A DNA stretch of 44,752 nucleotides from Faecousia sp. (GTDB taxonomy: Bacteria > Bacillota > Clostridia > Oscillospirales > Oscillospiraceae): the NCBI GenBank assembly GCA_045540795.1, contig JAZQHW010000147.1:1-44752 (forward strand), in the 5' to 3' direction. The stretch's first letter is position 1; every line of letters starts with the position of its first letter. A program made the position numbers and the translations under genes. The notes under the pieces are model-generated. The model saw nothing but the letters and a program-made list of their open reading frames with translations, did no database searches and was not told the origin of the DNA. Shown here in pieces: positions 1-21,479 of the stretch.

Positions 1-10
1 CATGGCTACG

Positions 11-41
11 ATCCGACTTCACCGAAAGGTGACGGATTTTT
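11..41. terminator. Hairpin immediately downstream of the PqqD-family gene (possible terminator or REP-like element)
   Basis: ATCCG-AC-TTCACC-GAAA-GGTGA-CGGAT imperfect inverted repeat at 11-37. The T-run follows on the + strand, not on the - (coding) strand, so function is uncertain. Confidence 0.35.
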
Positions 42-307
42 CATTCTTCCAGCAAATCTTTTTGGCGCAGCTTGTCCAGGAAAGCCTCGATATCTGCTTC
101 TGCCTGGGCAGGCTCCACTTCAAACTGTTCTGTAACTGCCGCTACAATGGTGGCAATCTCTGTTTCTTCCTCCAGGCATTGCCAAATCACACGGCTGACT
201 GCATTTAGGACGATCATTCCGTTAAAGCGCAGGGCAGTTTCCCCTACAGGAATCGCCAAAACCTCATCCACCACCTGGCGGATCATAAAGTTACCATTGA
301 GTTTCAT
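41..307 (-). CDS. Stand-alone PqqD-family RiPP recognition element (RRE)
   Basis: 88 aa MKLNGNFMIRQVVDEVLAIPVG...GMIVLNAVSRVIWQCL...IVAAVTEQFEVEPAQAEADIEAFLDKLRQKDLLE matches the PqqD pattern (LN..G/S..IW..L; Y/F.V....A..D...F...L....L). Start moved to ATG 307 because GGAGGTG lies just upstream. Confidence 0.9.
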   Translation of the reverse strand: MKLNGNFMIRQVVDEVLAIPVGETALRFNGMIVLNAVSRVIWQCLEEETEIATIVAAVTEQFEVEPAQAEADIEAFLDKLRQKDLLEE

Positions 308-320
308 AAGCGCACCTCCG

Positions 321-1439
321 TTACTTATCTGCATCGTAGATCGCTACCGTAACGATCTGGCTGGAATCCTTGGAATAATGGCTGGGACGCAGAGTTTGGG
401 CTGCTTTTCCTTCCAAATTGGTCAGCTTCAGGGTAAAGGTGATGCCACCCACAAAAACATCTGCATCCTCCATATAATACTTATAAAACACACGGACTGC
501 CGGGATAGGCTGCTTAGTCAAATTCTCCACTGTGATAGATCCGTCCCCGTTGTCGGTGACCTTTACCTCCGGTGCAAAGCTGCCTGCGGTGTTGCCTTCT
601 GCCACCAACGCCGTACATCCGGTGGGCTTGCCCTGGGGTACTGCTTTTCTCTGCTGCGCCTGAACAACTGCCCGCTCACCGGCAGGCAGCGCAGATACCT
701 GGAAAAGCAATTCCTCTTCCCCGTACTGCACCGTGATCCGGGCATATTCCAACGTTTCACTGCCGGTGTTTTTTACCAGCAGCATCGCCACATCCTTGAT
801 CTGAGCATTGGTGCCGTCTTCCACATACATACCGGAATAAGGCGCAAGCTTCTCGATCACCAAAGAATGTCCCGGGATCTGGCTGGGGAAGGTGATTCCC
901 GTTTCTTCTCCCGTTACCGGATCTGTTTCCTGGGGAACTGTTACTTCCGGAACGGTTTCCATTTCCTCCGGTTCGGTAGGTTCTACCTCCGGCAAGGTGG
1001 TTTCTTCCGGCTCTGTTTCCTCAGGTTGGGTTGCAGGCTGAGAAGCTTCTTCTGTAACCTCAGTTGTTTCCTCCGGCTGCGTAGTTTCTCCCGGTTGGGC
1101 CGTTTCTGCGGTTTCTTCCGGCTCTGTCACAGATTCTGTCGCTTCTGTGGTTTCAGCCGACTTGGTTGTCTCAGTTGTTTCTTCCGGTTTGGTAACTTCC
1201 GTAGAAGCTGTTGTTTCTATAGAGGGATTTGTTGTTTCCCCATTTGCTTCCCCTGTAGTTTCCCCGGTGCTCTCCCCGGGCAGGGTAGTCGTGACAACCG
1301 GGTCTGTTCCTGACGGGGCAGACTCCGGCTTGGGCATTGTGACTGCCCAAATCAGCAGTCCGGCAAATACCACCGCGGCAACTGCCAGACCTGCTACAAG
1401 CCATTTTGTTTTCGCCGTCATTTTTCTCTCTTTTCCCAT
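321..1439 (-). CDS. Membrane-anchored hypothetical protein with long acidic Thr/Glu/Pro-rich linker and C-terminal beta-rich domain
   Basis: N-terminal basic residues and a TM helix (WLVAGLAVAAVVFAGLLIWAV), ~140 aa T/E/P low-complexity stalk, then ~190 aa globular region. RBS AAGGAGG. Overlaps the end of the radical SAM gene by 22 nt. Confidence 0.8.
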   Translation of the reverse strand: MGKERKMTAKTKWLVAGLAVAAVVFAGLLIWAVTMPKPESAPSGTDPVVTTTLPGESTGETTGEANGETTNPSIETTASTEVTKPEETTETTKSAETTEATESVTEPEETAETAQPGETTQPEETTEVTEEASQPATQPEETEPEETTLPEVEPTEPEEMETVPEVTVPQETDPVTGEETGITFPSQIPGHSLVIEKLAPYSGMYVEDGTNAQIKDVAMLLVKNTGSETLEYARITVQYGEEELLFQVSALPAGERAVVQAQQRKAVPQGKPTGCTALVAEGNTAGSFAPEVKVTDNGDGSITVENLTKQPIPAVRVFYKYYMEDADVFVGGITFTLKLTNLEGKAAQTLRPSHYSKDSSQIVTVAIYDADK

Positions 1440-2554
1440 AGCGTGCCCTCCTTAATCTGCTGAACCAGCTTTTCTCTTTGGGGGCGCATTGCCTTGGTCA
1501 TCGCACAACGATACTCCGGCACTTTATCAAAGCAGCCGCTTTCTGTGATCACCATAGCACCACAAGCGTGGCACTCTTTCTTCAGTCCGCAGCCGGCACA
1601 TTCCACCGGCAATCGAATTGTGGCAATCTGCTCCTTCACAGCTTCCCAGGCAGGCAGGAAGTCTTCCCGGGTCAGATTCCGGGCATCTTTTTCCGGGAAC
1701 ATACCGCAAGCCATCAGCTTTCGCTCCCAGGTGACCCAGAAGCTGCACTTACCGCCCCGGCAACGGATACCGTCCCCCTCCGGGACGCAGGTATCTTCCG
1801 GGATCGGTTCTGTGGGTGTGCCCCGGAGAAAATCCTCTTCTCCATAAACTAAGTATTCACAAAAGGCGGTACAGTACGCCGCCTCTTCTGCTGTCAATCT
1901 TACATTTCTGCCAACCTGCTCCGGATCCTTTCGTATCGGTGGGAACATATAGGCAGTGGTTTGCAGCACCAGATCGTTTTCCTTGGCAAATGCCACGATC
2001 TGCGGCAGCTCCTCCCTGTTCTGGGGGGTAATGCTGCAGCTGAGCTTCACAGGGATCCCCGCCTGCTTTAACAGACGTATGGCTCTTTCCACCTTGGTGA
2101 AGCCCTGTTTATCGCCACACAGACGTTCATATGCGGCATTGGTTGCTCCATACAGGCTGACGTTGATCCGCAGCGGCGGCACTTTTTTCAGCCATTGTAC
2201 CGTTTCTTCCGTGATCAGCGTACCGTTGGAATTAATGCTGATCAGAAGACCCATTGGATGCAGACCTTCCATAATTTCCCTAAAATCCGGGTGAGAGAAA
2301 GGTTCACCGCCGGTGAGCAGCAAATAAAGCATTCCTGCATCTCTGGCTTCCTTTGCCAGTGCCAACCATTGAGCACCGGTGGACAGGGGACGGATCGCCT
2401 CCTGCTGCTGCCGGGTCAGGCGAATATAACACATTTTGCAATTCAGATTGCACAGGGGTGTTAATTCAAAAGTACCGCTTAAAGGCACACCGGTACTGGC
2501 TGCCTTTTGATACAAATACTCCGTTATGACAGGCGTTACCGGCAAATGATTCAT
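1418..2554 (-). CDS. Radical SAM/SPASM domain protein (peptide-modifying type)
   Basis: CxxxCxxC (CNLNCKMC), TGGEP and NSNG motifs. C-terminal SPASM-type cysteines CRGG...C, ACG, CAGC-x5-CHAC, YRC. ATGA overlap with the upstream kinase gene. Confidence 0.93.
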   Translation of the reverse strand: MNHLPVTPVITEYLYQKAASTGVPLSGTFELTPLCNLNCKMCYIRLTRQQQEAIRPLSTGAQWLALAKEARDAGMLYLLLTGGEPFSHPDFREIMEGLHPMGLLISINSNGTLITEETVQWLKKVPPLRINVSLYGATNAAYERLCGDKQGFTKVERAIRLLKQAGIPVKLSCSITPQNREELPQIVAFAKENDLVLQTTAYMFPPIRKDPEQVGRNVRLTAEEAAYCTAFCEYLVYGEEDFLRGTPTEPIPEDTCVPEGDGIRCRGGKCSFWVTWERKLMACGMFPEKDARNLTREDFLPAWEAVKEQIATIRLPVECAGCGLKKECHACGAMVITESGCFDKVPEYRCAMTKAMRPQREKLVQQIKEGTLWEKREK

Positions 2555-3435
2555 AATCTATTCTCCTGTTCCAGAGTGTTCTTTAACAGCATCACCGCAT
2601 CTGCATCCGGGCGGCAGCTAAGACGGTAGACCGGAACTTTTACCAAAAGATCGGCAAGGAGTGTCAATGCAAGATCCACAGACCGGGAATCCCAGCGATG
2701 GATTGCCAGCTCCGGGAACAGGCAGCGAAGTGCTTCCTGCTCTGTAAGCCGCACAATGCGGTTTCCTTCCGCCTGCTCCAGCACCACCAGCGCCGCCAAA
2801 GGGGCGGCTTCATTGCGATAGATCCCGGAGCTGCCGGCATAGGGCAGACCCCAGCCTTTCCATTGGTTTTTCTCTTCCTTCAGCGCTGCCCGATCTCCGT
2901 TCAGGATCCGGGCACCCAAATGCTTTTCCCAAAGATCAGCCTGAGTAGATTTACCGATACCGCAAGGACCGGTAAAGCCGATACCCCGACCCCGGTATTG
3001 GATCAATGCGCTATGAAGCACAAAGGTTTTTCGCTCCAACAGGATCTGCTCCGTTGCCACCTTGTTAAAGATCCCCGTAGTACCGGCAAAGTACTTTGCC
3101 GCCTCCGGTAAATACCGCAGGGTGATCCGATTCTCCTTGATATGAACAGAGCCGTAAGGCTCCTGCTGAGGGTGGGAATGGTAAAAAATCCACAGCTCAT
3201 CCAATTTCCGGATATAGTGGACACCGCCGATCCAAGACCCTTTTCCGGGAGAATTGGGAATGGCTCCCGGCTGAACGTCCAGGAGTACATCATACGCATC
3301 CCCCGCCGGCTCCCGGAGAAAAGGCAGAAAGTTTCCGCCGATCTCCAGGTCAGCCGGTGCCTGCATCCGAACACAGATACCGGCAAGGATAATATCCCAA
3401 GATTTCAAATTATCAGGAATGGAATGCGGTTGCAT
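2551..3435 (-). CDS. HprK-related P-loop kinase (ScmC / lasso-peptide-kinase-like)
   Basis: LHSA followed by Walker A GPCGIGKST, then LNGDR and GLPYAGSS, the arrangement of HprK-related kinases in RiPP clusters. Start uncertain (ATG 3435 or TTG 3408). Confidence 0.8.
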   Translation of the reverse strand: MQPHSIPDNLKSWDIILAGICVRMQAPADLEIGGNFLPFLREPAGDAYDVLLDVQPGAIPNSPGKGSWIGGVHYIRKLDELWIFYHSHPQQEPYGSVHIKENRITLRYLPEAAKYFAGTTGIFNKVATEQILLERKTFVLHSALIQYRGRGIGFTGPCGIGKSTQADLWEKHLGARILNGDRAALKEEKNQWKGWGLPYAGSSGIYRNEAAPLAALVVLEQAEGNRIVRLTEQEALRCLFPELAIHRWDSRSVDLALTLLADLLVKVPVYRLSCRPDADAVMLLKNTLEQENRL

Positions 3436-3664
3436 CGCTGGTCAGGTTGTGATAGCAACCCAGAGGTGTCAAATTACCATCCTCTGTGCAAGCATTGTTA
3501 CCCAGTGTGAACAACATTATGCCGCCAAAATTCCATGCACAATTCTGCGTGCTTTGCAGGGTCAAATCCTCCAGTGCCACCTTTTCAGAGCAGGCACGGT
3601 TTGTACTCTGGGCAGCTGTAAACATTTCCGCCTGGAACAGCGGTGCCGTATAAACTTTTTTCAT
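3413..3664 (-). CDS. Candidate RiPP precursor peptide (83 aa, 4 Cys)
   Basis: Strong RBS (GGAGG, inside the last codons of the upstream gene). Leader MKKVYTAP with YxxP motif; Cys25/42/59/70; ends CYHNLTSDATAFHS. Sits directly upstream of kinase, radical SAM and PqqD genes. Confidence 0.8.
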   Translation of the reverse strand: MKKVYTAPLFQAEMFTAAQSTNRACSEKVALEDLTLQSTQNCAWNFGGIMLFTLGNNACTEDGNLTPLGCYHNLTSDATAFHS

Positions 3665-3669
3665 TTTGA

Positions 3670-6600
3670 CTATCCTCCTATTTTCAGCCAGGAACGAATA
3701 CTTCCGAACAAACGGCTGATAAACTTTTTATACTTTAACATTTCCTCTCTGTCGCCGGGTTCCTCTGCCGGAGGCTCGGTAGCTTCCGGTTCCGTTGCTT
3801 CGGGCTCGGTAGCTTCCGGTTCGGTGGTTTCCGGCTCCGTTACTTCGGGCTCGGTGGTTTCCGGCACTTCCTCTTCCTGTCTGTTCATTCGCAGGAAGAA
3901 GGTTTGCACTGCCTCCACCGCCTCGCTGCTCTCCACCTTCAGGACACCACCGTTGGCAGGTACGCCCTTCAAACTGGTAGCACGGAGCTGGGTGACAGAC
4001 ACGATCGGTGCTTTTTCTCCCTCTGTCGTGGCTTCGGAATCGTTCATAATCACGATATAGCCGTCCACCGGAGTTACCTGGTAGAACATATCTGTCGAGT
4101 GGGACAGCTGGATCTGCACAGGCTCCTGACTGTCGATGCCGCTGACGGCAACCGTTACTGGCACACCGTTCAAGCTCTTAAGTCCCACATAGTAGGTATT
4201 GGCAGGATCTACCTTCAGCACGATGGACTGACCCTGAGTCATATACACCTCATTTTTAGGACCGTATTCCCGGAAGGTTCCGATCTCATAAGAAGGAGTA
4301 CCGTCATCCACGGCATCGTTACCGCTTTGTTGGCCGTCCCGGATCCAGTCGATAAATACTGCACCGGTTTTGCCGTCGGTACCGTCTGTCTGGTCGATAT
4401 TAAAATCATTGTAGTCCAGCAGGATATCCCGGACTTCGGTAAAGACTGCATTCAGTTCCTTTCCGTATGCGTCCTTAACCGTTTCGTCAGCATAGGTCTG
4501 GTCGCTGTCCAGGGGGTTATAGACCCGGATACCGTCCAGATAATATTCATACCGCTTGCCGTCATCGGTGGGATAGTCTTCCTCTGCCTTAGCGCTGGAA
4601 GCCAGCAGCTTGACACAGTAGGTACCGTATTTCAAATTCCGGAAGCTGACAGTGGGGATATGGTAGTAATCACCGGAAACTGCCAGGTTATCCATAATGA
4701 ATCCGGACTGTCTTACCAGCGTTTCCTCGCCGTTTTCTTCTTTCACCTGATACAGAGTTGCCATAATCAAGCCGGACTTGCTGTTGGTACGGGTGTAAAC
4801 ATCCACACCGGTACCGGTAAAGGTGAATTGTACACCGGCACCCCGTTCCTTATTGATACCCGTTGCGTGGGCACTGCCATCGGAGAAATCACCATCATCA
4901 TCCATAGAATCGATCCAGCCGTGGACATCGCCGTAGGGCGGATTTTCCAAATGCTCCGGGGTTTCGGTGTTTTGATCCGCTGCAGCTTCTCCGCCGTTAC
5001 CGAAAACAGTTTCCCAGCTGCCGGTGAAGGTAAATCCGTCCACACCGGTACCGTCACCGTTATCGGTTGTCACAAAGGAATCCTCATAATACACGCTGTT
5101 GGCAGGGATCACATTTACCTTGGACCACAGGTTGCCGTTTTGGTTGGCATCTTGAGAAACAACGGTGTTCCGCCAGGTGTTACCAAAGACATAGAACTGG
5201 TCATAGGCGCCCCAACGCATCGTGGTGGGTGTGTAGGTGACCACGCCGTCCTTCAGTTCCACAGTACCGTACTTGGTAGCCGTCAGCTTATTCTGCGGCA
5301 AAGTTTCATCGAACCAGGTCATACCGTCGCTGAAAATATTATCCAAATGGATAGCAGATGCCTGCTTGTCACCCTCGGAATCGTAATACCACCCGGTAAG
5401 GGTGAATTCCTTGGCATAGTCCAGCACATAGGCCCGCTCTACAAATATGGTAGAGGGCTGATCGAAGGGCAGCAACAGCACCCGCTCACCCTGGGCATTT
5501 TTCGGCAGCCACAGACCGGATTCCGGATTGTTGGTCAGGGTGGAGCGTCCCCACTCCACATCTTCCCGTCCCTCGATCCGGGTGATCTGTACCATCAGCC
5601 GGTATCCGTTGGGATGGCTTTCGTTGATATACCAGTTACTGAAATCATAGCCGGTAATATCCACCGTATGGGGGTGGTAGTCCTGTTCGTTGGGATCGGT
5701 GGCATTTTCTGCATCCAGATTAAACACCTGAATGCTCACGCCCTCCTTACCGGTAACAGATGTCTGTCCGGTCTTCAGCTCCAGGGTGGCCATCGTGACC
5801 AGCTCCGGATCGCCGTTGCCGTCCACCGCCCAATCCACCTGGCCGGTGGTGTTGTTGTAAACACCTTCCTGGGTATAGGCAGTGATCACCGTATCCTCAG
5901 TGAGCACCAGACCCTGTCCCATAATATCCCGGAGGATGGTATCCTCGTGAAGGATGATCTCCGTGGTGATCTTGGTGGTGATCTCCTTCATAACATTGTT
6001 AAAATAGTCATTCAGCTGGTCCGCACTGTCGGTGGTCTGATAGTAACCACTGTGCTCCGTGGGGCGGTACTGACTGTCCAGATACGCATAGACGGTCTGT
6101 CCGCCCACCTGCCCGTTGGTAACGGTGGGATTCTTGGTAGTGGAGATACTGTTGTTGGTGGTAGTAAGCCAGCCGCTGGTCTGGTAATACCAGCAGTTCT
6201 GCCAGCGCCAGCCCACACGGACATAGCCATACTTCAGCGGCAGATAGTTTCCGTCCTGCAGCACATAGTAGGTGGCATTGCTATCCAGCACAGTGCCGTT
6301 CTCCAGCTGGGTATAGCCGCCGTAGATCACATCCTCCATAGACTTCGCTTCCGGATAGTTGGAGGACAGGGCATTCATATAGACCGCCTGGTCACTGTGC
6401 TCATCCACACCCTGGCTGTGATACAAACCGATGGTGTAGCTATAGGCATTGTAGGTATTCTTGGTGATATAAGCCTCGGCAATGGCTTCGTTGGCCGTGG
6501 CGTTGTCAAAGGTGCCGATACCAGGCATACCGTCGGTGAACATCACCATAACCCGCACACGGTCCTGCTCCGCCTCTGTATCGTGCTGGGCAAAGATCTT

Positions 6601-9600
6601 GTTTGCCATCTCAATACCGTACTGCACATAAGTGCCGCCATTGGAGGCAAGGTGCTGGGTGGAAGCGAGCAAACCGGGGTTCACACCACCGGAACCGTTG
6701 GCACCCACAGAAACCGGGATCAGCGCATCCTTATAAATATTCACCTGGGGATTTCTGCCGGTTGTGGAAGTACGGGTGAACAGTCCGGAGTGGCCATCGG
6801 TGCAGGTGTAGCTGCTGCCGGTGCCATAGGCGTGGATCTGCCGGGGCTCAATGCCCTGGCGGTGCGTCCACACATCCTCGTGGTAGGTGAAAAATTCTTT
6901 CCAGGAGTAGGACAGCTTGGCGCCGTCCCGCTCATAGATCCACATACCGCTGAGGTTCCGGGTCAGTGGTACAAAGCGACCGGAATGATAGTCATTGGGG
7001 TCATCGTAAACATAACCGTAAACCTGGACGCCTTCCAAATCCTCGATCCGGGCATCCTCTTCTGAGATCAGATGGTAGTAACTGTCGTGATGCCGCAGAC
7101 GCAGGTATTCGCCGTTGTTAAACACATAGTAGTCACCATCCGCCAGAGGTGCACCGTGGTACTGGGAGTACACAAAGCCGGTGGTGGGATACGGATAGAA
7201 GTCACCCTTGGAGTCAAACACACCGGTATTGACCCATTCGGAGGTGTTGCCGCCGGCGATGGGGTAATCGTTGGTGTTGGTACCGGTAGGCGGTTCATCC
7301 GCATCACCGGCATAGCCTACCACCGCGATCCGGTGGTCCACTTCGTTGATACGGCCGTGGTTGGCAATTGCCACCACAAAACTGTTCAATGCCGTCTGGA
7401 GTTCATCCAGATAGCCTTCCTTAATAATAGAACCGGACTGGTCAATGACCATTACGATATCCAGGGGCGTATTCTGCTGGATCATAGTAGTCACCGGATT
7501 ATCTCTGGTGAAGGTATCCAGCCAGACGGTATAGGTGCCGTTGTTTTCCAAAGTAGCGGTCTTGTCCAGATGCAGATTGCTCTCCACCTGGTCCGTAAAG
7601 CCGTCTGAGCCGTCGGACAGGTAATACAGAGTGATCAGATTCGCAGCATTCTCCACCACTGTCAGGGTGGGATTCTGCTCATCATCCTGGTACTGACCGC
7701 CGATGGTGGCGCCCACATACTTGTAACCAAGGATGGCTACCGCCTCGTCCCGGGCAGCAATTACTGCACCCACCCGGGCATTGTTATAAACCTTGGAGCC
7801 TTGCAGCACCTTCTCGGTGTTCAGCTCCAGATAGCGGACAACATATGCCGGATCTTCCACAGGCTCCCACTGGGCAGTAAGGGTCACAGACTCTGCCAGC
7901 GCACCTGCTACCGAGATATCACCCATACTTGTGTGGATGCCTGCGTTACTTTCATAAGTCCAACCCTTGAAAACATAACCGGGTCGGTAAGGATAGGCAC
8001 GAAGAGTATCGGCAAAACCCCAGGTATGGCTGGCAGAAAGGAAGGTTCCGCCTCTTCCGTCATCGGTGACGAAATCCTGCATACCCTGGATGGCTCCCAG
8101 CTCTTCTTCCGGAGCATTCAGATCAAACAGAATGTGGTATTCCTTGGGGATCAGCTTGGCCCGAAGCCAGCGGGTGGCACTGTTTGTGGCGTTGTCCCAG
8201 CGGACAGGGTCGCTATATTCAATGACATAAGGAGCCGTGTCACTGTTAAATTCGGTGCCGGTGGCATCAAAGACACCGGGAACACTGCCGTATAGCCTGG
8301 TAATGTTCATCTGATACTGATACAGCGTACCGTTGGTGTGCCATTTCCACACATGATAGCCGCCGGAACCAACACCGTTGCTTCCTACAAGAATGTAAGT
8401 GCCGTAGGGGTCGGTATCGTGCTGTGCGATCCGGGTGTACTGGCCGTTATTGCCCAGATCCCGGTAGAGCACCTCCACCAGGGAGTCGTTGGGCCGGAAG
8501 CCTTCTGCCAAAGCAGAGGCATCCACCTCCATCATCAGGGGGAATGTCTCCGGATCCAGCTGCAGATGCACATTGACCTGGGCAATATCGTCGTCTCCGG
8601 CCAATGCCACAAACTCTTCCCCAGTGTAAGAATCCGGCTCCGGATCGATCTCATTGTCGTAGGTACTGGTGTAGTTCAGCTCCAGCACCTGGATCCGGTA
8701 TTCTGCACCGTCCTGAGGAACCTTTTCAAAACTGTACGCAGCCGTAGCCGTATCACTGCCGTCAGGGTAGGTAAATCTAACGATTTCACCGGCCACATCA
8801 TTGAACGAGCCGTTGGGCAGCTTCCGCTGCAGGACCACCAGCGATTCCTTTGCCCGGTCCTGCTCATTGATGGTCACATTGGTGTCCTGCATATAGGTGG
8901 CAGTCACGGTAACCATACCCTGAATGGTGAAGGGTGTACTCCACTTGGCATAGTAGGTCACATTCCCGGTCAGATATGCGCCTGCCCGGTTTTCTGCCGG
9001 CAAGGTACACGCCGGATCCAGGAACCAACCGGAGAAGGTGTAATCTTCGTCAGAATGGGTGGGGAGCTTGCTGTAAAGCTCCGGATACAGGAACTGGTTC
9101 TCCAAAATCAGTACATCCTGCCCCTCCACCGTGCCGCCCTGGGCATCGAAGGTCACCTGATAGGAATGAATATCCACGGTAACAGTGGGCGTACCGTTCT
9201 GGTGCCGGTAGTCAATATCATAATAGGTGCCGGTAAGGTCGGTATTGCTGCCGGCAGGGTAGGTGGGAACTGCGCCCTGTCCGCCGGTAATACCGTCGGG
9301 CTCGTTGGTCACCACTGCCGTGTACAGACCGGAGCCGTCTGGGAGGTAGGTGATCCCGTCTGCCGAGGGAGCAGCAGGCAGGATGGTGCCGTCGGGCATC
9401 ACAAAGGAGGTGACCTCCACCCGGTATGCATACGGTTCATCACTGTCTGCCCAGTATTTCCACACCGGGTACAGGCCGGAGCCTCTGCCGGTTTCCGGAT
9501 CGATGCGCACCGTAGAGGGAGGCAGGGTGCCTGCGTGCTGGAAGATCGTATGCCAGCCCAGCACACCGTTTTCATCGTAGCTCCAGCAAGTAATCTTCAC

Positions 9601-11295
9601 ATTCACCGCCTTGGGCAGCATTTCCTTGGTTTGCCCGGTAAAATTGACGATAACATCAAAGTCCAGGTCAAAGTCATCCGGCGTATAATTCAAAGTCAGA
9701 TAAATATCCTGATCTTCATAAATCTCACCGGTATGGGTCTGGGTGGTGGTATAGTGGGACTTTGCCGAACTGGCGTGGTAGCGTCCCTGGGGAACATCGG
9801 TAAGGGTGTAAGTATAGGTTGTGGTCTCCCCGTCGGAGGTAACGGCCTTGGTTTCGTCCAGCTGTACACTCTCCAGGGGCAGGTTTACACCGTTCTGCAC
9901 CACCAGCATCTGCAGCAGCATATCGTGCTTATTCCGGCTGTTGTCCACCGAACCATCCTCGGCCTTATGGTTCATCGTGATATGCACGGTGACATCAATG
10001 GTTTCTTCCCACTGGGCAGTGAGGACTGTCTTTTCGCTGATACCCTCTGTGATCTGTCCGCCGGGGGCAATGGCATTTCCGTTCTGGTCCTGCCAGCCGG
10101 TGAAGATGTAGCCTTCCCGGGAGGGAACTGCCGTGGTGGCAGTCACCGGTGTGCCGGAATGGTAGTGGGCAGAGCCGGGATCTTCTCCCGCTGCCCAGTT
10201 CCCGCCGGCAGTATCGTACAAAACACTGTAGTTATGCAGCTCTGTACGGCCGTTTTGGTTGTAAATGATGATCTGATGGCCGTGGACCTCTTCAAATTCC
10301 CCGGCTTCGTTTTTAAAGTATACCTGATAGGTGCCGTTGTCGGTGACGGTTTCCATATAAGTACCGGTCTGGGTCTTGGGTAACTCAATAAAGTCCTCCC
10401 CGTCGGAGCTCATATACACCGTCACATTTTCGCCCAGAATGTTTTCCACATTGGCAGGCTCTCCGTCCAGATTGGTCACCACCGTGGCGGAGTATTTGTT
10501 CGCCATATACCATTCAGCATACAGAACCAGATCGCTGTTGATCTCCACCACCTGCCCCGGCTCGTAATGGGTGCCGGTGCCGTCTTCTTTGGTGTTCCAG
10601 CCGTTGAATATGTAGGTATCTCTGTCCACCCGCTTCACCAGGTTGGCAGGCTTTGCCTCGATGGTGTACCTGGTGCCGGCTTCCAGATCCGTAACACCGC
10701 TAGGTGCGCCGCCGGCAGTATTGCCGTTACCATAATAGTTAACAGAATAGGTTTGCTTCTTGGTGATCAAGCCGTCAATGTGCCAGCTAGCATCACTTTT
10801 CTGATACTTCACCACATACCAAATGATGGTATAATCGTCTACATTCTCCTCGGTGATACCTTCTCTTCCGGCATTGAGGATAATGGTCCGCTCTGTTTCC
10901 GCATTATGTCTGCCTTCAGAGTCCACCAGCCCACTGGACTCCAGCAGATATCTACTGCCGCCTGTGGTGCTGAAAACACCCCAGACGCCGCTGGTGCCCT
11001 GGACCACATCGTCCAGAATCTGTGTCTTCAGAATGCCGTTGGCGCTGTCGGCAAAGGTGCCTACATAGCCATTGAGCTTCTCAAAGCTTCCGTTATAGTT
11101 TTGATAGTCACTGACACTGTGCTCCGCAGGCTCACCGGGGAAGTTTTCCCCTATGTACAGCGCAAGGTACACCGGACCGTTCAGGTCAATAGGTTTACCT
11201 GTGGAGTCATGGGCAGCAAACGCTGAGGCAGGGAGCAGGGTAAACACCATACACACTACCAGAAGCATTGCCAAGCTACGTTGCGTTTTTTTCAC
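3670..11295 (-). CDS. Giant secreted surface protein/adhesin (~2541 aa): InlB B-repeats, MucBP-like domain, vWA domain
   Basis: Signal peptide (VKKTQRSLAMLLVVCMVFTLLPASAFA). About four Listeria/Bacteroides B-repeats (e.g. GYIFTGW...LTAQW, YTFSGWF...YYAKW). MucBP-like YVVRYL...ILGY. vWA with MIDAS DQSGS and FTDG. PExTE repeats and an amphipathic C-terminal tail. Start set at GTG 11295, 9 nt after AAGGAG; the ORF-track start 11433 lies in the promoter region. Confidence 0.88.
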   Translation of the reverse strand: MKKTQRSLAMLLVVCMVFTLLPASAFAAHDSTGKPIDLNGPVYLALYIGENFPGEPAEHSVSDYQNYNGSFEKLNGYVGTFADSANGILKTQILDDVVQGTSGVWGVFSTTGGSRYLLESSGLVDSEGRHNAETERTIILNAGREGITEENVDDYTIIWYVVKYQKSDASWHIDGLITKKQTYSVNYYGNGNTAGGAPSGVTDLEAGTRYTIEAKPANLVKRVDRDTYIFNGWNTKEDGTGTHYEPGQVVEINSDLVLYAEWYMANKYSATVVTNLDGEPANVENILGENVTVYMSSDGEDFIELPKTQTGTYMETVTDNGTYQVYFKNEAGEFEEVHGHQIIIYNQNGRTELHNYSVLYDTAGGNWAAGEDPGSAHYHSGTPVTATTAVPSREGYIFTGWQDQNGNAIAPGGQITEGISEKTVLTAQWEETIDVTVHITMNHKAEDGSVDNSRNKHDMLLQMLVVQNGVNLPLESVQLDETKAVTSDGETTTYTYTLTDVPQGRYHASSAKSHYTTTQTHTGEIYEDQDIYLTLNYTPDDFDLDFDVIVNFTGQTKEMLPKAVNVKITCWSYDENGVLGWHTIFQHAGTLPPSTVRIDPETGRGSGLYPVWKYWADSDEPYAYRVEVTSFVMPDGTILPAAPSADGITYLPDGSGLYTAVVTNEPDGITGGQGAVPTYPAGSNTDLTGTYYDIDYRHQNGTPTVTVDIHSYQVTFDAQGGTVEGQDVLILENQFLYPELYSKLPTHSDEDYTFSGWFLDPACTLPAENRAGAYLTGNVTYYAKWSTPFTIQGMVTVTATYMQDTNVTINEQDRAKESLVVLQRKLPNGSFNDVAGEIVRFTYPDGSDTATAAYSFEKVPQDGAEYRIQVLELNYTSTYDNEIDPEPDSYTGEEFVALAGDDDIAQVNVHLQLDPETFPLMMEVDASALAEGFRPNDSLVEVLYRDLGNNGQYTRIAQHDTDPYGTYILVGSNGVGSGGYHVWKWHTNGTLYQYQMNITRLYGSVPGVFDATGTEFNSDTAPYVIEYSDPVRWDNATNSATRWLRAKLIPKEYHILFDLNAPEEELGAIQGMQDFVTDDGRGGTFLSASHTWGFADTLRAYPYRPGYVFKGWTYESNAGIHTSMGDISVAGALAESVTLTAQWEPVEDPAYVVRYLELNTEKVLQGSKVYNNARVGAVIAARDEAVAILGYKYVGATIGGQYQDDEQNPTLTVVENAANLITLYYLSDGSDGFTDQVESNLHLDKTATLENNGTYTVWLDTFTRDNPVTTMIQQNTPLDIVMVIDQSGSIIKEGYLDELQTALNSFVVAIANHGRINEVDHRIAVVGYAGDADEPPTGTNTNDYPIAGGNTSEWVNTGVFDSKGDFYPYPTTGFVYSQYHGAPLADGDYYVFNNGEYLRLRHHDSYYHLISEEDARIEDLEGVQVYGYVYDDPNDYHSGRFVPLTRNLSGMWIYERDGAKLSYSWKEFFTYHEDVWTHRQGIEPRQIHAYGTGSSYTCTDGHSGLFTRTSTTGRNPQVNIYKDALIPVSVGANGSGGVNPGLLASTQHLASNGGTYVQYGIEMANKIFAQHDTEAEQDRVRVMVMFTDGMPGIGTFDNATANEAIAEAYITKNTYNAYSYTIGLYHSQGVDEHSDQAVYMNALSSNYPEAKSMEDVIYGGYTQLENGTVLDSNATYYVLQDGNYLPLKYGYVRVGWRWQNCWYYQTSGWLTTTNNSISTTKNPTVTNGQVGGQTVYAYLDSQYRPTEHSGYYQTTDSADQLNDYFNNVMKEITTKITTEIILHEDTILRDIMGQGLVLTEDTVITAYTQEGVYNNTTGQVDWAVDGNGDPELVTMATLELKTGQTSVTGKEGVSIQVFNLDAENATDPNEQDYHPHTVDITGYDFSNWYINESHPNGYRLMVQITRIEGREDVEWGRSTLTNNPESGLWLPKNAQGERVLLLPFDQPSTIFVERAYVLDYAKEFTLTGWYYDSEGDKQASAIHLDNIFSDGMTWFDETLPQNKLTATKYGTVELKDGVVTYTPTTMRWGAYDQFYVFGNTWRNTVVSQDANQNGNLWSKVNVIPANSVYYEDSFVTTDNGDGTGVDGFTFTGSWETVFGNGGEAAADQNTETPEHLENPPYGDVHGWIDSMDDDGDFSDGSAHATGINKERGAGVQFTFTGTGVDVYTRTNSKSGLIMATLYQVKEENGEETLVRQSGFIMDNLAVSGDYYHIPTVSFRNLKYGTYCVKLLASSAKAEEDYPTDDGKRYEYYLDGIRVYNPLDSDQTYADETVKDAYGKELNAVFTEVRDILLDYNDFNIDQTDGTDGKTGAVFIDWIRDGQQSGNDAVDDGTPSYEIGTFREYGPKNEVYMTQGQSIVLKVDPANTYYVGLKSLNGVPVTVAVSGIDSQEPVQIQLSHSTDMFYQVTPVDGYIVIMNDSEATTEGEKAPIVSVTQLRATSLKGVPANGGVLKVESSEAVEAVQTFFLRMNRQEEEVPETTEPEVTEPETTEPEATEPEATEPEATEPPAEEPGDREEMLKYKKFISRLFGSIRSWLKIGG
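3775..3864 (-). repeat. Six imperfect 15-bp tandem repeats encoding PE(T/V/A)TE
   Basis: Translation PETTE PEVTE PETTE PEATE PEATE PEATE near the C-terminus of the giant protein. Confidence 0.9.
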
Positions 11296-11556: not shown

Positions 11557-12909
11557 TTACGGGAATATTTTTTTATGATAATTATTCAGCACAAAGCCTG
11601 CCATATCCGGCACACTTTTCCGCAATTTCCCCAGGCAGTCATTCACCGCATCGGTGAGCATAAAATCTGCACGAACGACCATTACCGCTATATCCGCCAG
11701 CCGTGCCATCAGCTCTGTATCCGCTGCCGCCAGCATAGGCGGTGTGTCCAAAACAATATAGTCATTTTCTTTCCTCAGCCGGTCGATCAGCTCTGCAAAA
11801 GTCTGTCCGCTAAGAATACTGTGAAGAGAGCGCTGCTCCGGGCAGCTGATGCCCAGCAGCAGATTCTGCTTCTTTCCGGAAACCAAAAACTCCCCGTCCA
11901 ACTTACCTCCGCTGCGAAGGTAGGCAGAGAAGCACCGTTCCTTATTCTGAGGCTGTTCCATAATTTTGTGCAAGGAAGGCTTCCGGAAGTCACAGTCCAG
12001 CAATACTGTCCGTTTCCCCCGTAATGCCATTGCCAATGCCAGATTGGTAGCAACGGTGGATTTTCCCTCGTTTTCGCCGGCGCTGGTAACCAGAATTACC
12101 TGCTGTCCACGCTTACGCATATGGTACTCCATAGCGGAGCACAAATTCATATTATCCTCGATAAATGTCTTACTGATCAGAGGGTTGGTGATCAGCGGCG
12201 CTTCGTTTTTCCGCTTATACTTAGCACGGAGAGTCTTATTCCGTTCCTCGTGATGGATGATCCGCAGCAATCGGGCATCCAGCTTCCGTCGGGCTGCCTT
12301 GGGTGTCTGCACTGTATCCCGGAAGATAGAAAGGAGCACCACTGCTGCCAATCCCAAAACAGCAGACAGGATCAGCACCACCGGGTAGTTATCCTTAATA
12401 TTCAAAGGGTTCGTGGGAACCATCGGCACAGCCGGTGCTTTGATCACCTCCAGCTGGGCATTGGCAAAGACATAATCGGAAATAGTAGCGTAGTTTTCAA
12501 TGATCAGATTCAAACTCCGGAAAGACATTGCCGGGGTAGGGGAGGTTACGCTGACCACCAGCAGATTGGTCTCCGGAATGGTTGCACTGGTGATAGTGCC
12601 GTTAAATTTCTCACTGCCCAGCTGCTCCTGGACCTTATCCCGCAGCACGTTGCTCTTAAACACTTCACCGAATACCATCGCCATATTCTGCGTCGTGGTC
12701 AGCGAATTATATGCATTGGTGCTGTCCTTAGCGCCCACCATAAAGGTGGCATAAGAGGTGTATTGGGGTTCATAAGTAACTTTGGCAATGCCCGTATAGA
12801 CCATCACCGCGCTGATGCACAGTAGCGCCACCACCCACAGATTCCGGAGGATCGCAACTGCCAGAGAGTGAAGATTGACCTCCTCCAGCAAAAACCGTTT
12901 CTCGTTCAT
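11557..12909 (-). CDS. Wzz/CpsC-CpsD/CapB fusion, bacterial tyrosine (BY) kinase with intact catalytic motifs
   Basis: Two TM segments flanking an extracellular loop. Walker A TSAGENEGKST, Walker A' LLDCDFRKP, Walker B IVLDTPP. Ends GFVLNNYHKKIFP with no Tyr cluster. Confidence 0.9.
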   Translation of the reverse strand: MNEKRFLLEEVNLHSLAVAILRNLWVVALLCISAVMVYTGIAKVTYEPQYTSYATFMVGAKDSTNAYNSLTTTQNMAMVFGEVFKSNVLRDKVQEQLGSEKFNGTITSATIPETNLLVVSVTSPTPAMSFRSLNLIIENYATISDYVFANAQLEVIKAPAVPMVPTNPLNIKDNYPVVLILSAVLGLAAVVLLSIFRDTVQTPKAARRKLDARLLRIIHHEERNKTLRAKYKRKNEAPLITNPLISKTFIEDNMNLCSAMEYHMRKRGQQVILVTSAGENEGKSTVATNLALAMALRGKRTVLLDCDFRKPSLHKIMEQPQNKERCFSAYLRSGGKLDGEFLVSGKKQNLLLGISCPEQRSLHSILSGQTFAELIDRLRKENDYIVLDTPPMLAAADTELMARLADIAVMVVRADFMLTDAVNDCLGKLRKSVPDMAGFVLNNYHKKIFP

Positions 12910-13736
12910 TCTGCCACCTCCCCGGTAACCACGACTGTCAGCACCGTCTGCCCGGTGAGTGTTCCGTCTGCATAGGTATAGGTCAGACTGTAACAGCCGG
13001 GGGTGTCTGTATCCAAATTACCCTCCACCGTCACTTTCGACCGGTCCAGCGGTGTATGATCCCGGTCTGTCACAGAAGCGATCCATCTTGCAGGCGCAAA
13101 ATCCCCGCCCTGCTCCACATATACCAGATATTCGTGGAGCTTAATGGAAACTGCCGTGCTGCGTTTTTCCAAATATGTGACCATAATCTGCACCTGCACC
13201 GTTTCTCCGTAGCTGTTGGATGCCTCCACAACCACCGGGTACACACCGGGGGTATAGTTGCTGACCCCGTTGGAAACTACCCGGATCCGCTGGGAAATAT
13301 CCCCATCGATCACATCTGTAACAGAAAGGTTGCTCAACAAATCAAAATTCTCACCTTTTTGATAGACCGGTGCTTTGGAAAGGGAGAACACCGGAAACAC
13401 ATAATCTGTGTAATGGATCTGCCTGGTGAAGGTATCGGAATTGTTATGGGAATCAAACACCACATATTTTGCCCGAACCGTTCCCGGTTCCAGGAAATGA
13501 GATACCGATGCCACCATAATTTTATCTGTCAGATCTCCGTCGGTTTCATCCTCTGCCGTCAAGCCCTGAAGCAAGGCTTCCTTGCCGTCGGCAACTGACA
13601 GCTCCAGCGTGGCGTCCTCGCCAACGATCCTGGGTTTATCATTGTTTTGCCGTTTATTGTACTGCAGCGTTGCCCAGCCGCTGAACAGCAGCGCCGCCAC
13701 AAATACAAGTATCACCAATAAGCGAAAGTACCGCAT
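12906..13736 (-). CDS. Membrane-anchored protein with about three Ig-like (DUF5011-type) repeats
   Basis: N-terminal TM/signal. Repeated TAxDxxDGDLT/IS motifs (LTAEDETDGDLTDKI, LSVTDVIDGDISQRI) and PGxY strands. ATG 13736 follows GAGGTG; the GTG at 13748 is an alternative start. Confidence 0.8.
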   Translation of the reverse strand: MRYFRLLVILVFVAALLFSGWATLQYNKRQNNDKPRIVGEDATLELSVADGKEALLQGLTAEDETDGDLTDKIMVASVSHFLEPGTVRAKYVVFDSHNNSDTFTRQIHYTDYVFPVFSLSKAPVYQKGENFDLLSNLSVTDVIDGDISQRIRVVSNGVSNYTPGVYPVVVEASNSYGETVQVQIMVTYLEKRSTAVSIKLHEYLVYVEQGGDFAPARWIASVTDRDHTPLDRSKVTVEGNLDTDTPGCYSLTYTYADGTLTGQTVLTVVVTGEVAE

Positions 13737-13744
13737 ACCGCACC

Positions 13745-15292
13745 TCACTGTCTGTTTCGTTTCTTTTCCGGTTTCGGTTTCTCTTCTCCGTAACCGTAAC
13801 CGTAGCCATAATGACCGTAATGGCCATAATGTCCGTAATTTCCGTATCTGCCGTACCTGCCGTAATGGCCGTACCTGCCATAGTGACCGTACTGACCGTA
13901 GGTGCCGTAACCGTAACCGTAGCCGTAACCGTAACCGTAGCCGTAACCGGTCAAGCCGCTTTCCAAGCCGTTAAGCACACAGCCCAAAAGCTCTCCGTCA
14001 AAATGACCCAGATCTTCTATGCAGTTCATGATCCGGCTGGTCTTGCAGCTATCCTGACGAACTACAAACAAGATCCGCTCTGCCAGCTCCAATGCCGGAG
14101 TTGCCTGATCCAGATCTTCCAAAGAAGGTGCATCCAGAATAATGTAGTCCATTACCTGTTTGGCACCTGCGATCAGCTCCCGGAAACGGGAAATTGCCCG
14201 ATTCCGCTCCCCTCCGGTTAAGGGTCGGCTGCAGCCAGCCTCCCAAACACCCTTGGTATTGCTCTGGCGAAGAACACCGGTCAGGTCGCCGCCTTCCAGC
14301 AGAAAGCTTTCCAATCCTGTTTGCAGCGTATCACAATGCTGCAGATCTGTATTGATCAAAAGCACCTGCTTCCCTTGATCCGCCAGCGCACAGGCAAGAT
14401 TCTCCGCCATTGTGGATACGCCTTCACCCCGGACCGCACCGGTAACTGCCAAAACCTTCATTCCATCCATTTTTCTATGGACGTGCAGCGCCATGCCCCG
14501 GATGCTCTCTCGGAACGGCGCGCCTACATGCTCGCCACGAATAGACAGCCGTTTCGTTGTCTGACCGCCGGACCGCTTTCTGAAAACCAAAGGCACCGTG
14601 CCTAAACATTGGGTGTGCAACCGCTTAGTGATATCTGCTTCTTTCCGTACCGTGCCCCGGGAAACAGCATACATCACCAGCATACAAACAGCAAAAAAAC
14701 CACCTATAAGAACACCTTTTAATATAGCCGTTGTACGGTTTGCGCTGTTATACGGCTTTTCCGGAACCTGGGGCAAGCCGATCATATTCAGCCGGGTCTT
14801 ACCAATGACATATTCCGAAACAGCCGGGTAATTATCGATCAGTGCCAGCAGAATATCATAAGCTGCCTGAGGGTCGGCACTGGTCACCGTTAATGTAAAC
14901 AGGTTGGAATTTTCGATCACCGTTGCTCCGGGGACACCGTTCAGAACCTCCACGCCCATATCTGCCTTTACCCGGTCCAGCAAAAGATCGCTGTCCAGCA
15001 GGTAAGGGAAGGTCCGTGCCATCTGTGCGGCTGTCCGGTTATCGTAATAGAAGGAGTAGCCTGCTTCATTGTTGTCGGTCTCCACCGTAAAGGTAGCCTC
15101 CGCCCGGTACATGGGACGGTAGCTTCCGGTGCTGGTGACAAAACCGGCAGCTGCGCCAAGCAGGACCAGTGCCACCACCAGCCACCAAAACTTCAGCGCA
15201 CCGCGCATAATATCGTGAAACAGGATCCCCAGATCCAGTTCCATCAATGCCTCACCGGTCTCGTTTTTTGTTTCTTCCTGTAAATGATCCAT
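13745..15292 (-). CDS. Wzz/CpsC-CpsD-like fusion with degenerate kinase motifs and very long Gly-Tyr tail (probable pseudokinase)
   Basis: Two TMs. Walker A reads TGAVRGEGVST (Lys to Val), Walker A' reads LINTDLQH, Walker B IILDAPS. C-terminal (GY)7(GxY)11(GY)3. Confidence 0.85.
   Translation of the reverse strand: MDHLQEETKNETGEALMELDLGILFHDIMRGALKFWWLVVALVLLGAAAGFVTSTGSYRPMYRAEATFTVETDNNEAGYSFYYDNRTAAQMARTFPYLLDSDLLLDRVKADMGVEVLNGVPGATVIENSNLFTLTVTSADPQAAYDILLALIDNYPAVSEYVIGKTRLNMIGLPQVPEKPYNSANRTTAILKGVLIGGFFAVCMLVMYAVSRGTVRKEADITKRLHTQCLGTVPLVFRKRSGGQTTKRLSIRGEHVGAPFRESIRGMALHVHRKMDGMKVLAVTGAVRGEGVSTMAENLACALADQGKQVLLINTDLQHCDTLQTGLESFLLEGGDLTGVLRQSNTKGVWEAGCSRPLTGGERNRAISRFRELIAGAKQVMDYIILDAPSLEDLDQATPALELAERILFVVRQDSCKTSRIMNCIEDLGHFDGELLGCVLNGLESGLTGYGYGYGYGYGYGYGTYGQYGHYGRYGHYGRYGRYGNYGHYGHYGHYGYGYGYGEEKPKPEKKRNRQ
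13787..13948 (-). repeat. Nested 6-bp and 9-bp tandem repeats encoding the Gly-Tyr cluster
   Basis: On the + strand, (CCGTAA/G)n hexamers flank eleven imperfect 9-mers. 54 codons with 21 Tyr. Confidence 0.95.
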
Positions 15293-19937: not shown

Positions 19938-21479
19938 ATGAAAAAGCTGTTTTGTATCATTCTCAGCGTTCTTATGATTTTAAGCCTATGCGCCTGCGGT
20001 GGCAACAACGAAGACGCCCCTCAGGAGCTCAAAATCGAAAGCTTCTCCGTTGGTTATGGACAAGCAGATATCTCCTCAAACCTGCCTTTGCAGCTATACG
20101 GCTTCGCTGCCGGCGGTGAGCGTCTGTCCCAGACAATTCTGGATCCCATCTATGCCACCTGTGTTGCTTTTACAGACCCGGACAACACTACCGTTTTGCT
20201 GGTAGCTACCGATCTGTGCCAGTCCTTCAAGATTACTGCAGATGTGCGGCAGCTGGTCTCAGATGCCACCGGTGTTCCCGTATCCAATATCCTGTTCACT
20301 GCCTCTCATACCCACAGCGCCCCGGGTCAGGACGGTGGCGGTGATCCCAACGTCAGCACCTATAACGAGATGTACAAGACCCAGTGTGTTCAGGCAGCCA
20401 AAGACGCAATGGCAGACCGAAAGCCTGCCAAAATGGAAACTGCCTGTGGCCGTCCCGAGGGATATGTTTTCAACCGCCATTATGTGATGGCAGACGGCAC
20501 CTTCCTGGGTGTAGGTGTAGGTTCTTACAAGCAAAACGAGATCTACGGACATATCGATGCCGGTGATAACCTGATGCAGCTGGTAAAATTCACCCGGGAG
20601 GGTGGCAAGGACATCGTGATGATTAACTGGCAGGGGCACTATTACGGCACCTCCGAGGTCAACTACTATGCCATCTCCGCTGACTATCCCGGTATCCTCC
20701 GGAAAGAAGTGGAAGAAGCTCTGGACTGCGAATCCATTTTCATTCTGGGCGGCTCCGGCAACCAGAACACCAAGTCCCAGATCGATACCGAAAACAAACA
20801 TAAAAACTATATTGAATTCGGCGAAGCCTTAGCCCAGGAAGCTCTCAAGGTGGCAGAAGGCTTCCAGCCTGCTGAAACCGGCAAGATCGCTCTGGTGGAG
20901 AATATGCACACCTTTGCCGGCTCTGCCGCTGCAATTCCTCTGTATGCCTTCGGTTTTGGAGATTTCGGCTGCGCCACCGCCCCCAACGAGCTGTTTTCCT
21001 CCACCGGAATCGGTGTCCGAGAAGCTTCTAAGTTCAAGTACACCTTTATTGCCACCTGCGCCAACGGCAACTATAAGTATTTGCCGGATGAATTTGCCTT
21101 TACTTATAAAAGCTACGAAGCAGAGGAATGCACCCTGTATCCCAAGGGAACTGCGGAAGCAATGCAGGAAGAGCTGACCAAACTGCTGGATACGGTCTTT
21201 ACCGCCACTGGCGGCAGCGTAAAGGAAAAAGATCCCGGTTATATCACTGACAACAGTCCCAAATCTGACGGTGTGGAATACACCAATCCCTTCCCCGGTG
21301 ACCTTACTGCCTGTCGGGAAATGCCCAACGGTCTGTATCAGATCACCGTACTTACTCCTCAGCAAACTTTGAAGGATTTCTTTGTAAAAGACAAAGAAAC
21401 TGCCGAAAAAGTGCTGACACAAACTAATCTGAAACTTCTGTTTGACGCAAGAAATATTATTACCGGATTAGGAGAATAA
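19938..21479 (+). CDS. Lipoprotein with neutral/alkaline ceramidase-like amidohydrolase domain
   Basis: Lipobox LCAC. VGYGQADI, DPIYA, ASHTHSAP, NWQGH, ISADYPG, PNELF and YLP motifs of the ceramidase_alk family. Confidence 0.8.
   Translation: MKKLFCIILSVLMILSLCACGGNNEDAPQELKIESFSVGYGQADISSNLPLQLYGFAAGGERLSQTILDPIYATCVAFTDPDNTTVLLVATDLCQSFKITADVRQLVSDATGVPVSNILFTASHTHSAPGQDGGGDPNVSTYNEMYKTQCVQAAKDAMADRKPAKMETACGRPEGYVFNRHYVMADGTFLGVGVGSYKQNEIYGHIDAGDNLMQLVKFTREGGKDIVMINWQGHYYGTSEVNYYAISADYPGILRKEVEEALDCESIFILGGSGNQNTKSQIDTENKHKNYIEFGEALAQEALKVAEGFQPAETGKIALVENMHTFAGSAAAIPLYAFGFGDFGCATAPNELFSSTGIGVREASKFKYTFIATCANGNYKYLPDEFAFTYKSYEAEECTLYPKGTAEAMQEELTKLLDTVFTATGGSVKEKDPGYITDNSPKSDGVEYTNPFPGDLTACREMPNGLYQITVLTPQQTLKDFFVKDKETAEKVLTQTNLKLLFDARNIITGLGE

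Follow-up and report, generated by a model that had tools for sequence, protein, structure and literature searches.

We analyzed a 44,752-nucleotide stretch of DNA from Faecousia sp. (GCA_045540795.1, JAZQHW010000147.1; hereafter the window), where a first-pass annotation made from the sequence had proposed a ribosomally made, post-translationally modified peptide (RiPP) system of five minus-strand genes, encoding an 83-amino-acid (aa) precursor, an HprK-like kinase, a radical S-adenosylmethionine (SAM)/SPASM enzyme, a membrane-anchored protein and a stand-alone PqqD-type RiPP recognition element (RRE). We propose, at about even confidence, that these genes form a conserved peptide-maturation module whose modified product acts at the cell surface as the partner of a giant secreted protein encoded directly upstream, and not as a free antibiotic. 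The system resembles the tailoring of linear polyphosphorylated peptides (LPP) and of paeninodin, with a SPASM enzyme added as the probable crosslinker, and it departs from the defining features of both LPP leaders and lasso peptides. The link to the giant protein, the capsule-regulator genes in the same gene run and the relationship to the LPP family all go beyond the first-pass annotation.

A precursor family that accompanies the radical SAM enzyme

Genes were called in 89 loci, comprising the window, contig C210 of the source genome, 58 of 80 loci from an enzyme search (22 distant ones being excluded) and 29 loci from two further searches; most had been retrieved via the radical SAM gene. 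Named relatives in the enzyme search included Eubacterium segne BX4 and Clostridium sp. 1001270J. The five-gene arrangement is far beyond chance, because 85 of the 89 loci had a called radical SAM enzyme, 69 the kinase and 41 PqqD. Also called were S24/S26 peptidases (27 loci), Wzc (22), ABC transporters (20), CpsB (17), the membrane protein (16) and PF14907 (13).

A single-sequence search with the 83-aa open reading frame (ORF) returned one relative (69%), while the enzyme neighborhoods returned many, with short YxxP-containing ORFs in 58 of the 89 loci (some of these rows being noise). When 27 members with four Cys were built into a profile, it reached 2,265 clusters (50% identity) at E ≤ 1e-3 and 484 at 1e-10, and none of the 27 matched any NCBIfam model at E < 0.07. 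Members follow the pattern MKKxYxKP..FExFxLS..IAxxC, then C-Y and a terminal F-x-S, with Cys spacings mostly of 11-13, 16-20 and 11-15. Across 151 profile-selected precursors, Y5, P8 and the four Cys columns were conserved in 100%, the Tyr after the last Cys in 99%, Phe81 in 95% and Ser83 in 99%; all 151 carried a Ser within the last two residues and 128 had four Cys. As a control, peptides chosen by position and leader alone ended in Ser in 35 of 53 cases, compared with 49 of 819 larger neighboring proteins.

We used the same set of 301 family genomes for all co-distribution counts, with an enzyme threshold of E ≤ 1e-60. The enzyme was found in 24 genomes and the peptide in 23, of which 22 were shared, so that 1 of 277 enzyme-negative genomes carried the peptide, and this lone case was a weak match of a different type; these counts come from profiles partly built from positive genomes (23 of 103 rows of the peptide profile derive from enzyme loci) and from related genomes that cannot be counted as independent of one another (17 of 134 genera). 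Peptide and enzyme copy numbers agreed in G005, G105, G210, G247 and G277, and the core identity of the peptides rose with that of the enzymes (partial rho 0.27, 7 of 2,000 shuffles, 20 loci). The earlier assignment of the ORF as a precursor is upheld by a family conserved beside homologous radical SAM genes and by this co-distribution, and the 83-aa peptide is very probably the substrate of the module.

Related enzymes at L036, L045, L050, L057-L059, L073-L079 and L065-L086 come with other precursor types, either Ser-ended and 100-160 aa long or 40-80 aa long with two to three Cys, and beside these the giant-protein domain described below is absent. In a quick tree with hand-assigned labels, the labels were clustered (4 changes versus 18.7 when shuffled), without forming one clade.

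A giant secreted protein as candidate partner

The giant protein gene ends 5 bases ahead of the precursor start on the same strand. Large genes beside the peptides vary in their cargo (VWA, GH20, PA14, pilin immunoglobulin (Ig)) and share a region of about 425 aa near the C terminus. This domain has no Pfam or NCBIfam match and is carried by at least 485 protein clusters; it occurred in 21 of the 301 genomes, each of which also carried the enzyme and the peptide, and in none of the 277 enzyme-negative ones. Overall, of 42 distinct four-Cys-type peptides in long loci, 34 lay no more than 310 bases from a gene encoding the domain, compared with 0 of 13 peptides of other types. Of the 42, 32 lay at most 199 bases downstream of a carrier (31 at most 48), two just upstream and two about 2 kb away, while six showed no carrier, though for two of these the domain is present, in split form, in an upstream gene of 4,400 aa. 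The peptide also stays with the giant gene where the enzyme is on another contig (G225, G278, G270) or 12 kb off (G277). We propose the partnership because the peptide gene almost always adjoins the giant gene, and from this we infer that the peptide binds the giant protein.

The window protein has neither LPxTG nor a C-terminal membrane anchor, and no LPxTG or C-terminal membrane segment was present in 34 domain carriers or in 120 close homologues of the window protein; several carriers terminate in an amphipathic helix. The domain was modeled as all-beta (pLDDT 73) with a core resembling a carbohydrate-binding module (CBM) over residues 61-268 (Z 13.8, rmsd 2.8, 126 aligned), and an Atlas search with it gave leads that were all below 0.8. 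A protease fold was considered and was not seen, with a median Cys count of 0, no Pfam or NCBIfam matches, Foldseek TM of at most 0.24 and matches that were CBM-like only, the last third being barely covered. As a separate observation, genome G121 (C3, C14, C16, C19, C25) has three enzymes and four peptides alongside five domain carriers, which are 1,600-3,100 aa long, and the source genome of the window encodes many large secreted proteins with common C-terminal modules.

A rather unlikely alternative is that the module yields a modified peptide that acts freely, such as a signal or a narrow antimicrobial, with the giant gene being a co-inherited neighbor, receptor or co-regulated passenger whose CBM-like domain binds capsule sugars alone. 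Consistent with this, the peptide sequence follows the enzyme rather than the domain, the core is hypervariable, an exporter is present in the genome, the domain has a CBM-like fold and enzymes with other peptide types lack the domain. Against it stand the absence of the domain from every enzyme-negative genome and the continued adjacency of peptide and giant genes where the enzyme gene has moved away.

The radical SAM/SPASM enzyme and the predicted crosslinks

The enzyme matches Radical_SAM PF04055 (E 1.7e-23, residues 30-189), has no N-terminal RRE and was modeled with a pLDDT of 94. The seven SPASM Cys are conserved in 99-100% of the family and have the same spacing as in thioether-forming CrpC, as given in the available text of PMC13692751. 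The best match of the family profile among solved structures was the sactipeptide synthase SkfB (E 3e-33 versus 6e-20). The earlier description of a SPASM protein without a fused RRE is borne out, and the enzyme is of the peptide-maturase type. The top Foldseek match of the model was SuiB, and the heme-pathway enzymes AhbD and NirJ were among the top NCBIfam matches, all far below cut-off.

Crosslinking of the core through thioethers is somewhat favored because the substrate has four fixed Cys. Auxiliary cluster I is less certain: its open iron site is in doubt because an extra, poorly conserved Cys precedes C283 in 55 of 69 enzymes, and in the window either C256 or C270 could supply a fourth ligand to the seven conserved Cys. 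Such ligation would suit a different chemistry within the same module and with the same partner, namely two disulfides formed after export, together with a C-C or C-O crosslink at the Cys-Tyr or terminal Phe-x-Ser in the manner of streptide or cyclophanes. The conservation of Tyr71, Phe81 and Ser83, the SuiB match and the even number of Cys point the same way. We nevertheless consider this fairly improbable, given that several members (TLTS, TINS, TMPS, VSGS) have Leu, Ile, Pro or Gly-type residues in place of the C-terminal aromatic, that SkfB is the best profile match and that no FxsB, GrrM or XyeB model was among the best 25 of 68 NCBIfam matches.

Leader recognition and the HprK-like protein

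PqqD matches PF05402 (E 6.8e-18), and among solved structures the RREs of lasso and LPP systems match it best. Nine of its residues (L34, N35, V37, F62, E63, D72, F76, L80 and L85) align in kind at a constant +2 offset with nine LppB leader-contact residues given in the available text of PMC13381572, which include the Asp bonding the leader Tyr; the corresponding D72 is 89% conserved. The stand-alone PqqD of the first-pass annotation thus appears, from this alignment, to have kept a pocket for a Tyr-containing leader.

The HprK-like protein has no Pfam match, and its HprK-related NCBIfam matches are weak (E 0.003-0.06, far below cut-off), while its family profile matches structures of phosphoenolpyruvate carboxykinase (PEPCK) and of HPr kinase (E 0.002-0.009). 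In lasso HprK kinases, all of a His-Lys-Asp-Asp set are essential, the conserved C-terminal Ser is phosphorylated and PsmN adds a hexose, according to the available text of PMC9266682. Among 62 aligned kinases (some of them near-duplicates), the last two positions read G-D in 55, N-D in 4, Y-D in 1 and D-D in 2, and neither D-D kinase adjoins a radical SAM gene. Because G-D was also found in 8 of 13 kinase loci without a radical SAM motif within about 1.5 kb, it reads as a common variant in which kinase activity is likely but not assured. Phosphorylation is uncertain because the window kinase has G180-D181 in place of D-D, and is less safe than the first-pass annotation had implied.

Two further ideas were rejected. 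G-D does not mark radical SAM linkage, as it also occurs in loci without the motif, and a D-D kinase acting in trans is not a general rule: with a threshold of E 1e-30 such a kinase was present in 5 of 25 genomes, and none was seen in G181, G193, G262 and G300. Separately, a GH20 secreted gene sits between the kinase and radical SAM genes in six loci (among L041-L047, L053).

It is improbable that the HprK-like protein is no kinase here and serves instead as a scaffold or activator, binding ATP and offering the peptide C terminus to the radical SAM enzyme, with a product that is crosslinked and not phosphorylated. The observation that D-D is never seen beside a radical SAM gene would fit such a role, but the His, Walker A Lys and second Asp are invariant, G-D is shared with loci lacking a nearby radical SAM motif, the terminal Ser is conserved and PF14907 shares a locus with G-D kinases in G181, G193 and G262. 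Finally, the notion that the ORF is not the substrate and that the enzyme acts on a capsule-pathway cofactor or sugar, as the AhbD/NirJ matches and nearby capsule genes might suggest, is very improbable in view of how far those matches lie below cut-off, the co-distribution, the RRE with its matching leader pocket and the agreeing copy numbers.

Processing functions and capsule context

Upstream of the module on the same strand lie, in addition to the giant gene, two Wzz/Wzc-like genes and an Ig-like surface gene. The domain of the membrane-anchored protein occurred in 18 of the 301 genomes, 16 of them among the 24 enzyme-positive ones, and an Atlas search with this protein returned unnamed clusters. 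The tail of the Wzc-like protein at 13745-13900 is a Gly-Tyr/His-Tyr repeat that far exceeds the usual tyrosine cluster length.

The first-pass annotation saw no protease or exporter in the window, which holds, and suggested that they might lie left of position 1, which is unnecessary: contig C210 carries an S26 peptidase (TIGR02228, E 5e-11) and an ABC exporter along with capD, wzz, cpsD, a second PqqD and a D-D kinase. Contig C3 of the same genome carries a PF14907 nucleotidyltransferase. The S26 peptidase was present in 21 of 24 enzyme-positive versus 31 of 277 other genomes and PF14907 in 19 of 24 versus 41 of 277, and in relatives the peptidase, nucleotidyltransferase and exporter share one locus.

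Other observations concern the same contigs. The PF14907 gene (L192:3511-6000; C3 to 15695) ends a capsule-sugar locus with epimerases, a flippase, a polymerase and a glycosyltransferase, and C56:5102-6862 (L191) encodes a second cassette-type ABC exporter, the next gene being that of a CpsB-like phosphatase. Two peptides of 47 aa that have no Cys, share 80% of their sequence and carry YxxP leaders are encoded on the minus strand at C52:20950-21096 (L189) and C159:170-322 (L190), each with a Ser near the likely cut and directly behind a secreted protein of 1535 or 1603 aa; they read as LPP-like precursors that perhaps serve the D-D kinase of C210. On C210, the S26 and ABC genes flank one for a membrane-anchored protein rich in Glu and Thr (L188:3955-4722), whose last residues resemble the ends of these peptides and which was the closest of three non-peptide matches in a genome-wide motif scan.

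Proposed pathway

In the pathway we propose, PqqD would grip the YxxP leader, the radical SAM enzyme would crosslink the four-Cys core via thioethers and the HprK-like protein would phosphorylate the C-terminal Ser. We rate terminal-Ser phosphorylation, perhaps followed by PF14907-mediated sugar or nucleotide transfer by analogy with PsmK/PsmN, a little above even. The leader would then be cut after about residue 22-24 by the S26 peptidase and the product exported by the ABC transporter, both encoded elsewhere, and this assignment of leader removal and export is probable. At the surface, the peptide, the C-terminal domain of the giant protein and the membrane-anchored protein would together hold variable cargo (VWA, GH20, PA14) at the capsule, a role that we think may equally be right or wrong. 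A more speculative and unlikely extension is sortase-independent display, in which the crosslinked peptide is a clip with a rigid core that docks into the cargo domain and its phospho-Ser is joined to a capsule sugar via the nucleotidyltransferase.

Several observations count against this pathway, in addition to the shared origin of profiles and positive genomes given above. The fold leaves the reaction undecided, with anSME, SuiB, SkfB, CteB and ChlB tied at Z 23-25 and 16-19% identity, and the extra Cys could close the open iron site that thioethers require. The first Asp of His-Lys-Asp-Asp is absent in 60 of 62 aligned kinases, and a D-D kinase was not found in four genomes that are 96-99% complete. 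Neither S26 nor PF14907 was seen in G006, a genome that is 95% complete, and the window peptide has T21-N22 where 111 of 151 members have I-A, as do the consensus-like members at L116 and L119. For the partnership, peptide versus domain identity with the enzyme allowed for gave a partial rho of 0.10 (p 0.14); the domain may, from its modeled fold, bind sugar and not peptide; and 3 of 34 domain carriers end in S-layer homology (SLH)-like repeats (recognized by eye), so some carriers have an anchor of their own.

Comparison with known systems

Among systems already described, the nearest is that of LPP in Paenibacillus alginolyticus, with LppA/K/B/S/D/N (PMC13381572, Popov et al. 2026, available text), in which LppK phosphorylates Ser3, LppS cuts the leader and a linear core is modified mainly by polyphosphorylation. 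Both systems have a discrete RRE, a YxxP leader, an HprK-like kinase, an SpI/S26 peptidase, a nucleoside triphosphate (NTP) transferase, an MsbA-like exporter and a capsule-locus setting. Here the peptidase, transferase and exporter are in the source genome though outside the operon, and the RRE is predicted to read its leader as LppB does, given PF05402, invariant Y5 and P8 and matching pocket residues. The leaders differ, the LPP form being YxxPxVLxHQxIxFETxxS with Ser3 as acceptor (PMC13381572, available text) and ours YxKPxxxFExFxLSxxIAxxC; LPP has a Ser three places after the likely cut and our family a Cys at the matching place. Also unlike LPP, the system has a radical SAM/SPASM enzyme, a four-Cys core, a terminal F-x-S, a G-D kinase and proposed giant- and membrane-protein partners. 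The main text of PMC13381572 makes no mention of radical SAM, SPASM or Clostridia, a supplementary matrix there has one Radical_SAM column, and the available text states as open both the function of LPP/paeninodin-type phosphopeptides and the reason for their capsule-locus setting.

With the phosphorylated lasso peptides paeninodin and pseudomycoidin (PadeK, ThcoK, PsmK, PsmN; PMC9266682, available text), the system has in common an HprK-like kinase, a C-terminal Ser, a PqqD-type B1 and a nucleotidyltransferase, with H141, K162, G180 and D181 in place of H-K-D-D. Neither a macrolactam cyclase nor a B2 cysteine peptidase was found in the window operon or the annotated recurring neighbors of the 89 loci, a genome-wide search not having been made. 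The sactipeptide/ranthipeptide synthases SkfB, CteB and CrpC resemble our enzyme in their radical SAM/SPASM fold, seven-Cys SPASM spacing and Cys-rich substrates; here, in contrast, the RRE is a separate protein, identity is 16-19% and the precursor has no NCBIfam match.

QhpC of quinohemoprotein amine dehydrogenase is a crosslinked small polypeptide that is exported and assembled as a subunit of a larger protein. By analogy, our peptide may be a small radical SAM-crosslinked polypeptide that becomes the partner of a larger exported protein, a parallel of logic; this system has no quinone cofactor, heme subunit or QhpE-type protease and the partner is a variable-cargo surface protein. For QhpC/QhpD, three thioethers and RRE-leader engagement are described in the available text of PMC13692751.

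Other cassettes fit less well. SynChlorMet (TIGR04248-04251) also combines radical SAM/SPASM, PqqD and the HprK-like ScmC, and its models were among the best matches while scoring below cut-off (ScmC 14.6/125, ScmD 28.3/100, ScmE 79.4/400 and ScmF 77.3/400 bits); its cassette has two radical SAM genes, unlike the one here. PqqE (72.8/381 bits) and MftC (77.9/265 bits), for pyrroloquinoline quinone (PQQ) and mycofactocin, were likewise below cut-off, and no pqqB/C or mft genes were among the annotated recurring neighbors of the 89 loci. In place of the six Cys in 45 residues of SCIFF precursors, most members have four Cys and no NCBIfam match. These results, with no lasso cyclase among the neighbors, agree with the earlier exclusion of SCIFF, PQQ, mycofactocin and lasso systems. 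In triceptides, an Aromatic-x-Ser motif is crosslinked by an FxsB/GrrM/XyeB-class enzyme; F-x-S is present in most of our precursors and missing in some.

We found no published description of this radical SAM variant in a search mostly outside subscription journals, nor any in the term-matched passages of PMC10352776, PMC4289311, PMC7470986 and bioRxiv 467670. About 300 lasso-like discrete RREs adjoin radical SAM enzymes, according to the available text of PMC7470986.

The gene run and the window

The positions of the five minus-strand ORFs (Table 1) were borne out, with Radical_SAM and PqqD matches above cut-off. As for the reported gene overlaps, those at 2551-2554 and 1418-1439 stand, while that at 3413-3435 depends on the start codon, and an in-frame TTG at 3408 would abolish it. 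The window is a complete contig (C147), position 1 being the contig end, and its bases 1-20 form a short repeat, found again at the ends of six other contigs or close to them, which probably interrupted the assembly. DNA contigs from four runs span most of 1-4200 with few differences, the region left of base 1 not being covered. The inverted repeat after pqqD is a weak hint that the gene run may stop there, and a promoter scan gave a result at chance level. Further along the window, 19938-21479 encodes a ceramidase-like lipoprotein with 13 paralogues in the 1.95-Mb genome.

Table 1 Features of the gene run in the window
Feature	Position	Strand	Remarks
Inverted repeat directly after pqqD	11..37	-	z -1.83; 11/200 shuffles equally stable
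Stand-alone PqqD/RRE, 88 aa	41..307	-	Counted from ATG preceded by ribosome-binding site
Membrane-anchored protein, 372 aa	321..1439	-	N-terminal hydrophobic segment, Glu/Thr/Pro-rich stalk, conserved, unnamed ~195-aa C-terminal domain (324-920)
Radical SAM/SPASM enzyme, 378 aa, without fused RRE	1418..2554	-	C35/C39/C42; SPASM Cys 265, 283, 319, 322, 328, 331, 350; extra C256, C270
HprK-like P-loop protein, 294 aa	2551..3435	-	H141, Walker A K162, D181 invariant; G180 at position of lasso kinases' first Asp
Precursor peptide, 83 aa	3413..3664	-	YxxP leader (Y5, P8), Cys25/42/59/70, Tyr71, C-terminal F-H-S
Giant secreted protein, 2541 aa from likely start	3670..11295	-	VWA, Listeria-Bacteroides repeats; open frame to 11433
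Unnamed ~425-aa C-terminal domain of giant protein	3958..5298	-	All-beta, CBM-like jelly roll (predicted); co-distributed with precursor and enzyme
Wzz/Wzc-like capsule co-polymerase/tyrosine-kinase fusion	11557..12909	-	
Surface Ig-like protein (PF16403)	12906..13748	-	Present in 13/89 loci
Second Wzz/Wzc-like protein	13745..15292	-	Gly-Tyr-rich tail

Implications

The unnamed domain, confined to genomes with peptide and enzyme among those searched, provides a concrete candidate partner for LPP/paeninodin-like peptides. The module also defines a radical SAM subfamily whose natural substrates in gut Clostridia are diverse and number in the thousands, and which was found in about 8% of the family's sampled species. 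If the clip arrangement is true, one RiPP pathway would moor interchangeable adhesins and glycosidases to the cell, and the Ser peptides of LPP type that are encoded behind other giant proteins of the genome would be a radical SAM-free version of it. More broadly, should the peptide prove to be a structural partner for proteins of the surface, the roles of RiPPs would extend beyond antibiotics, signals and cofactors.

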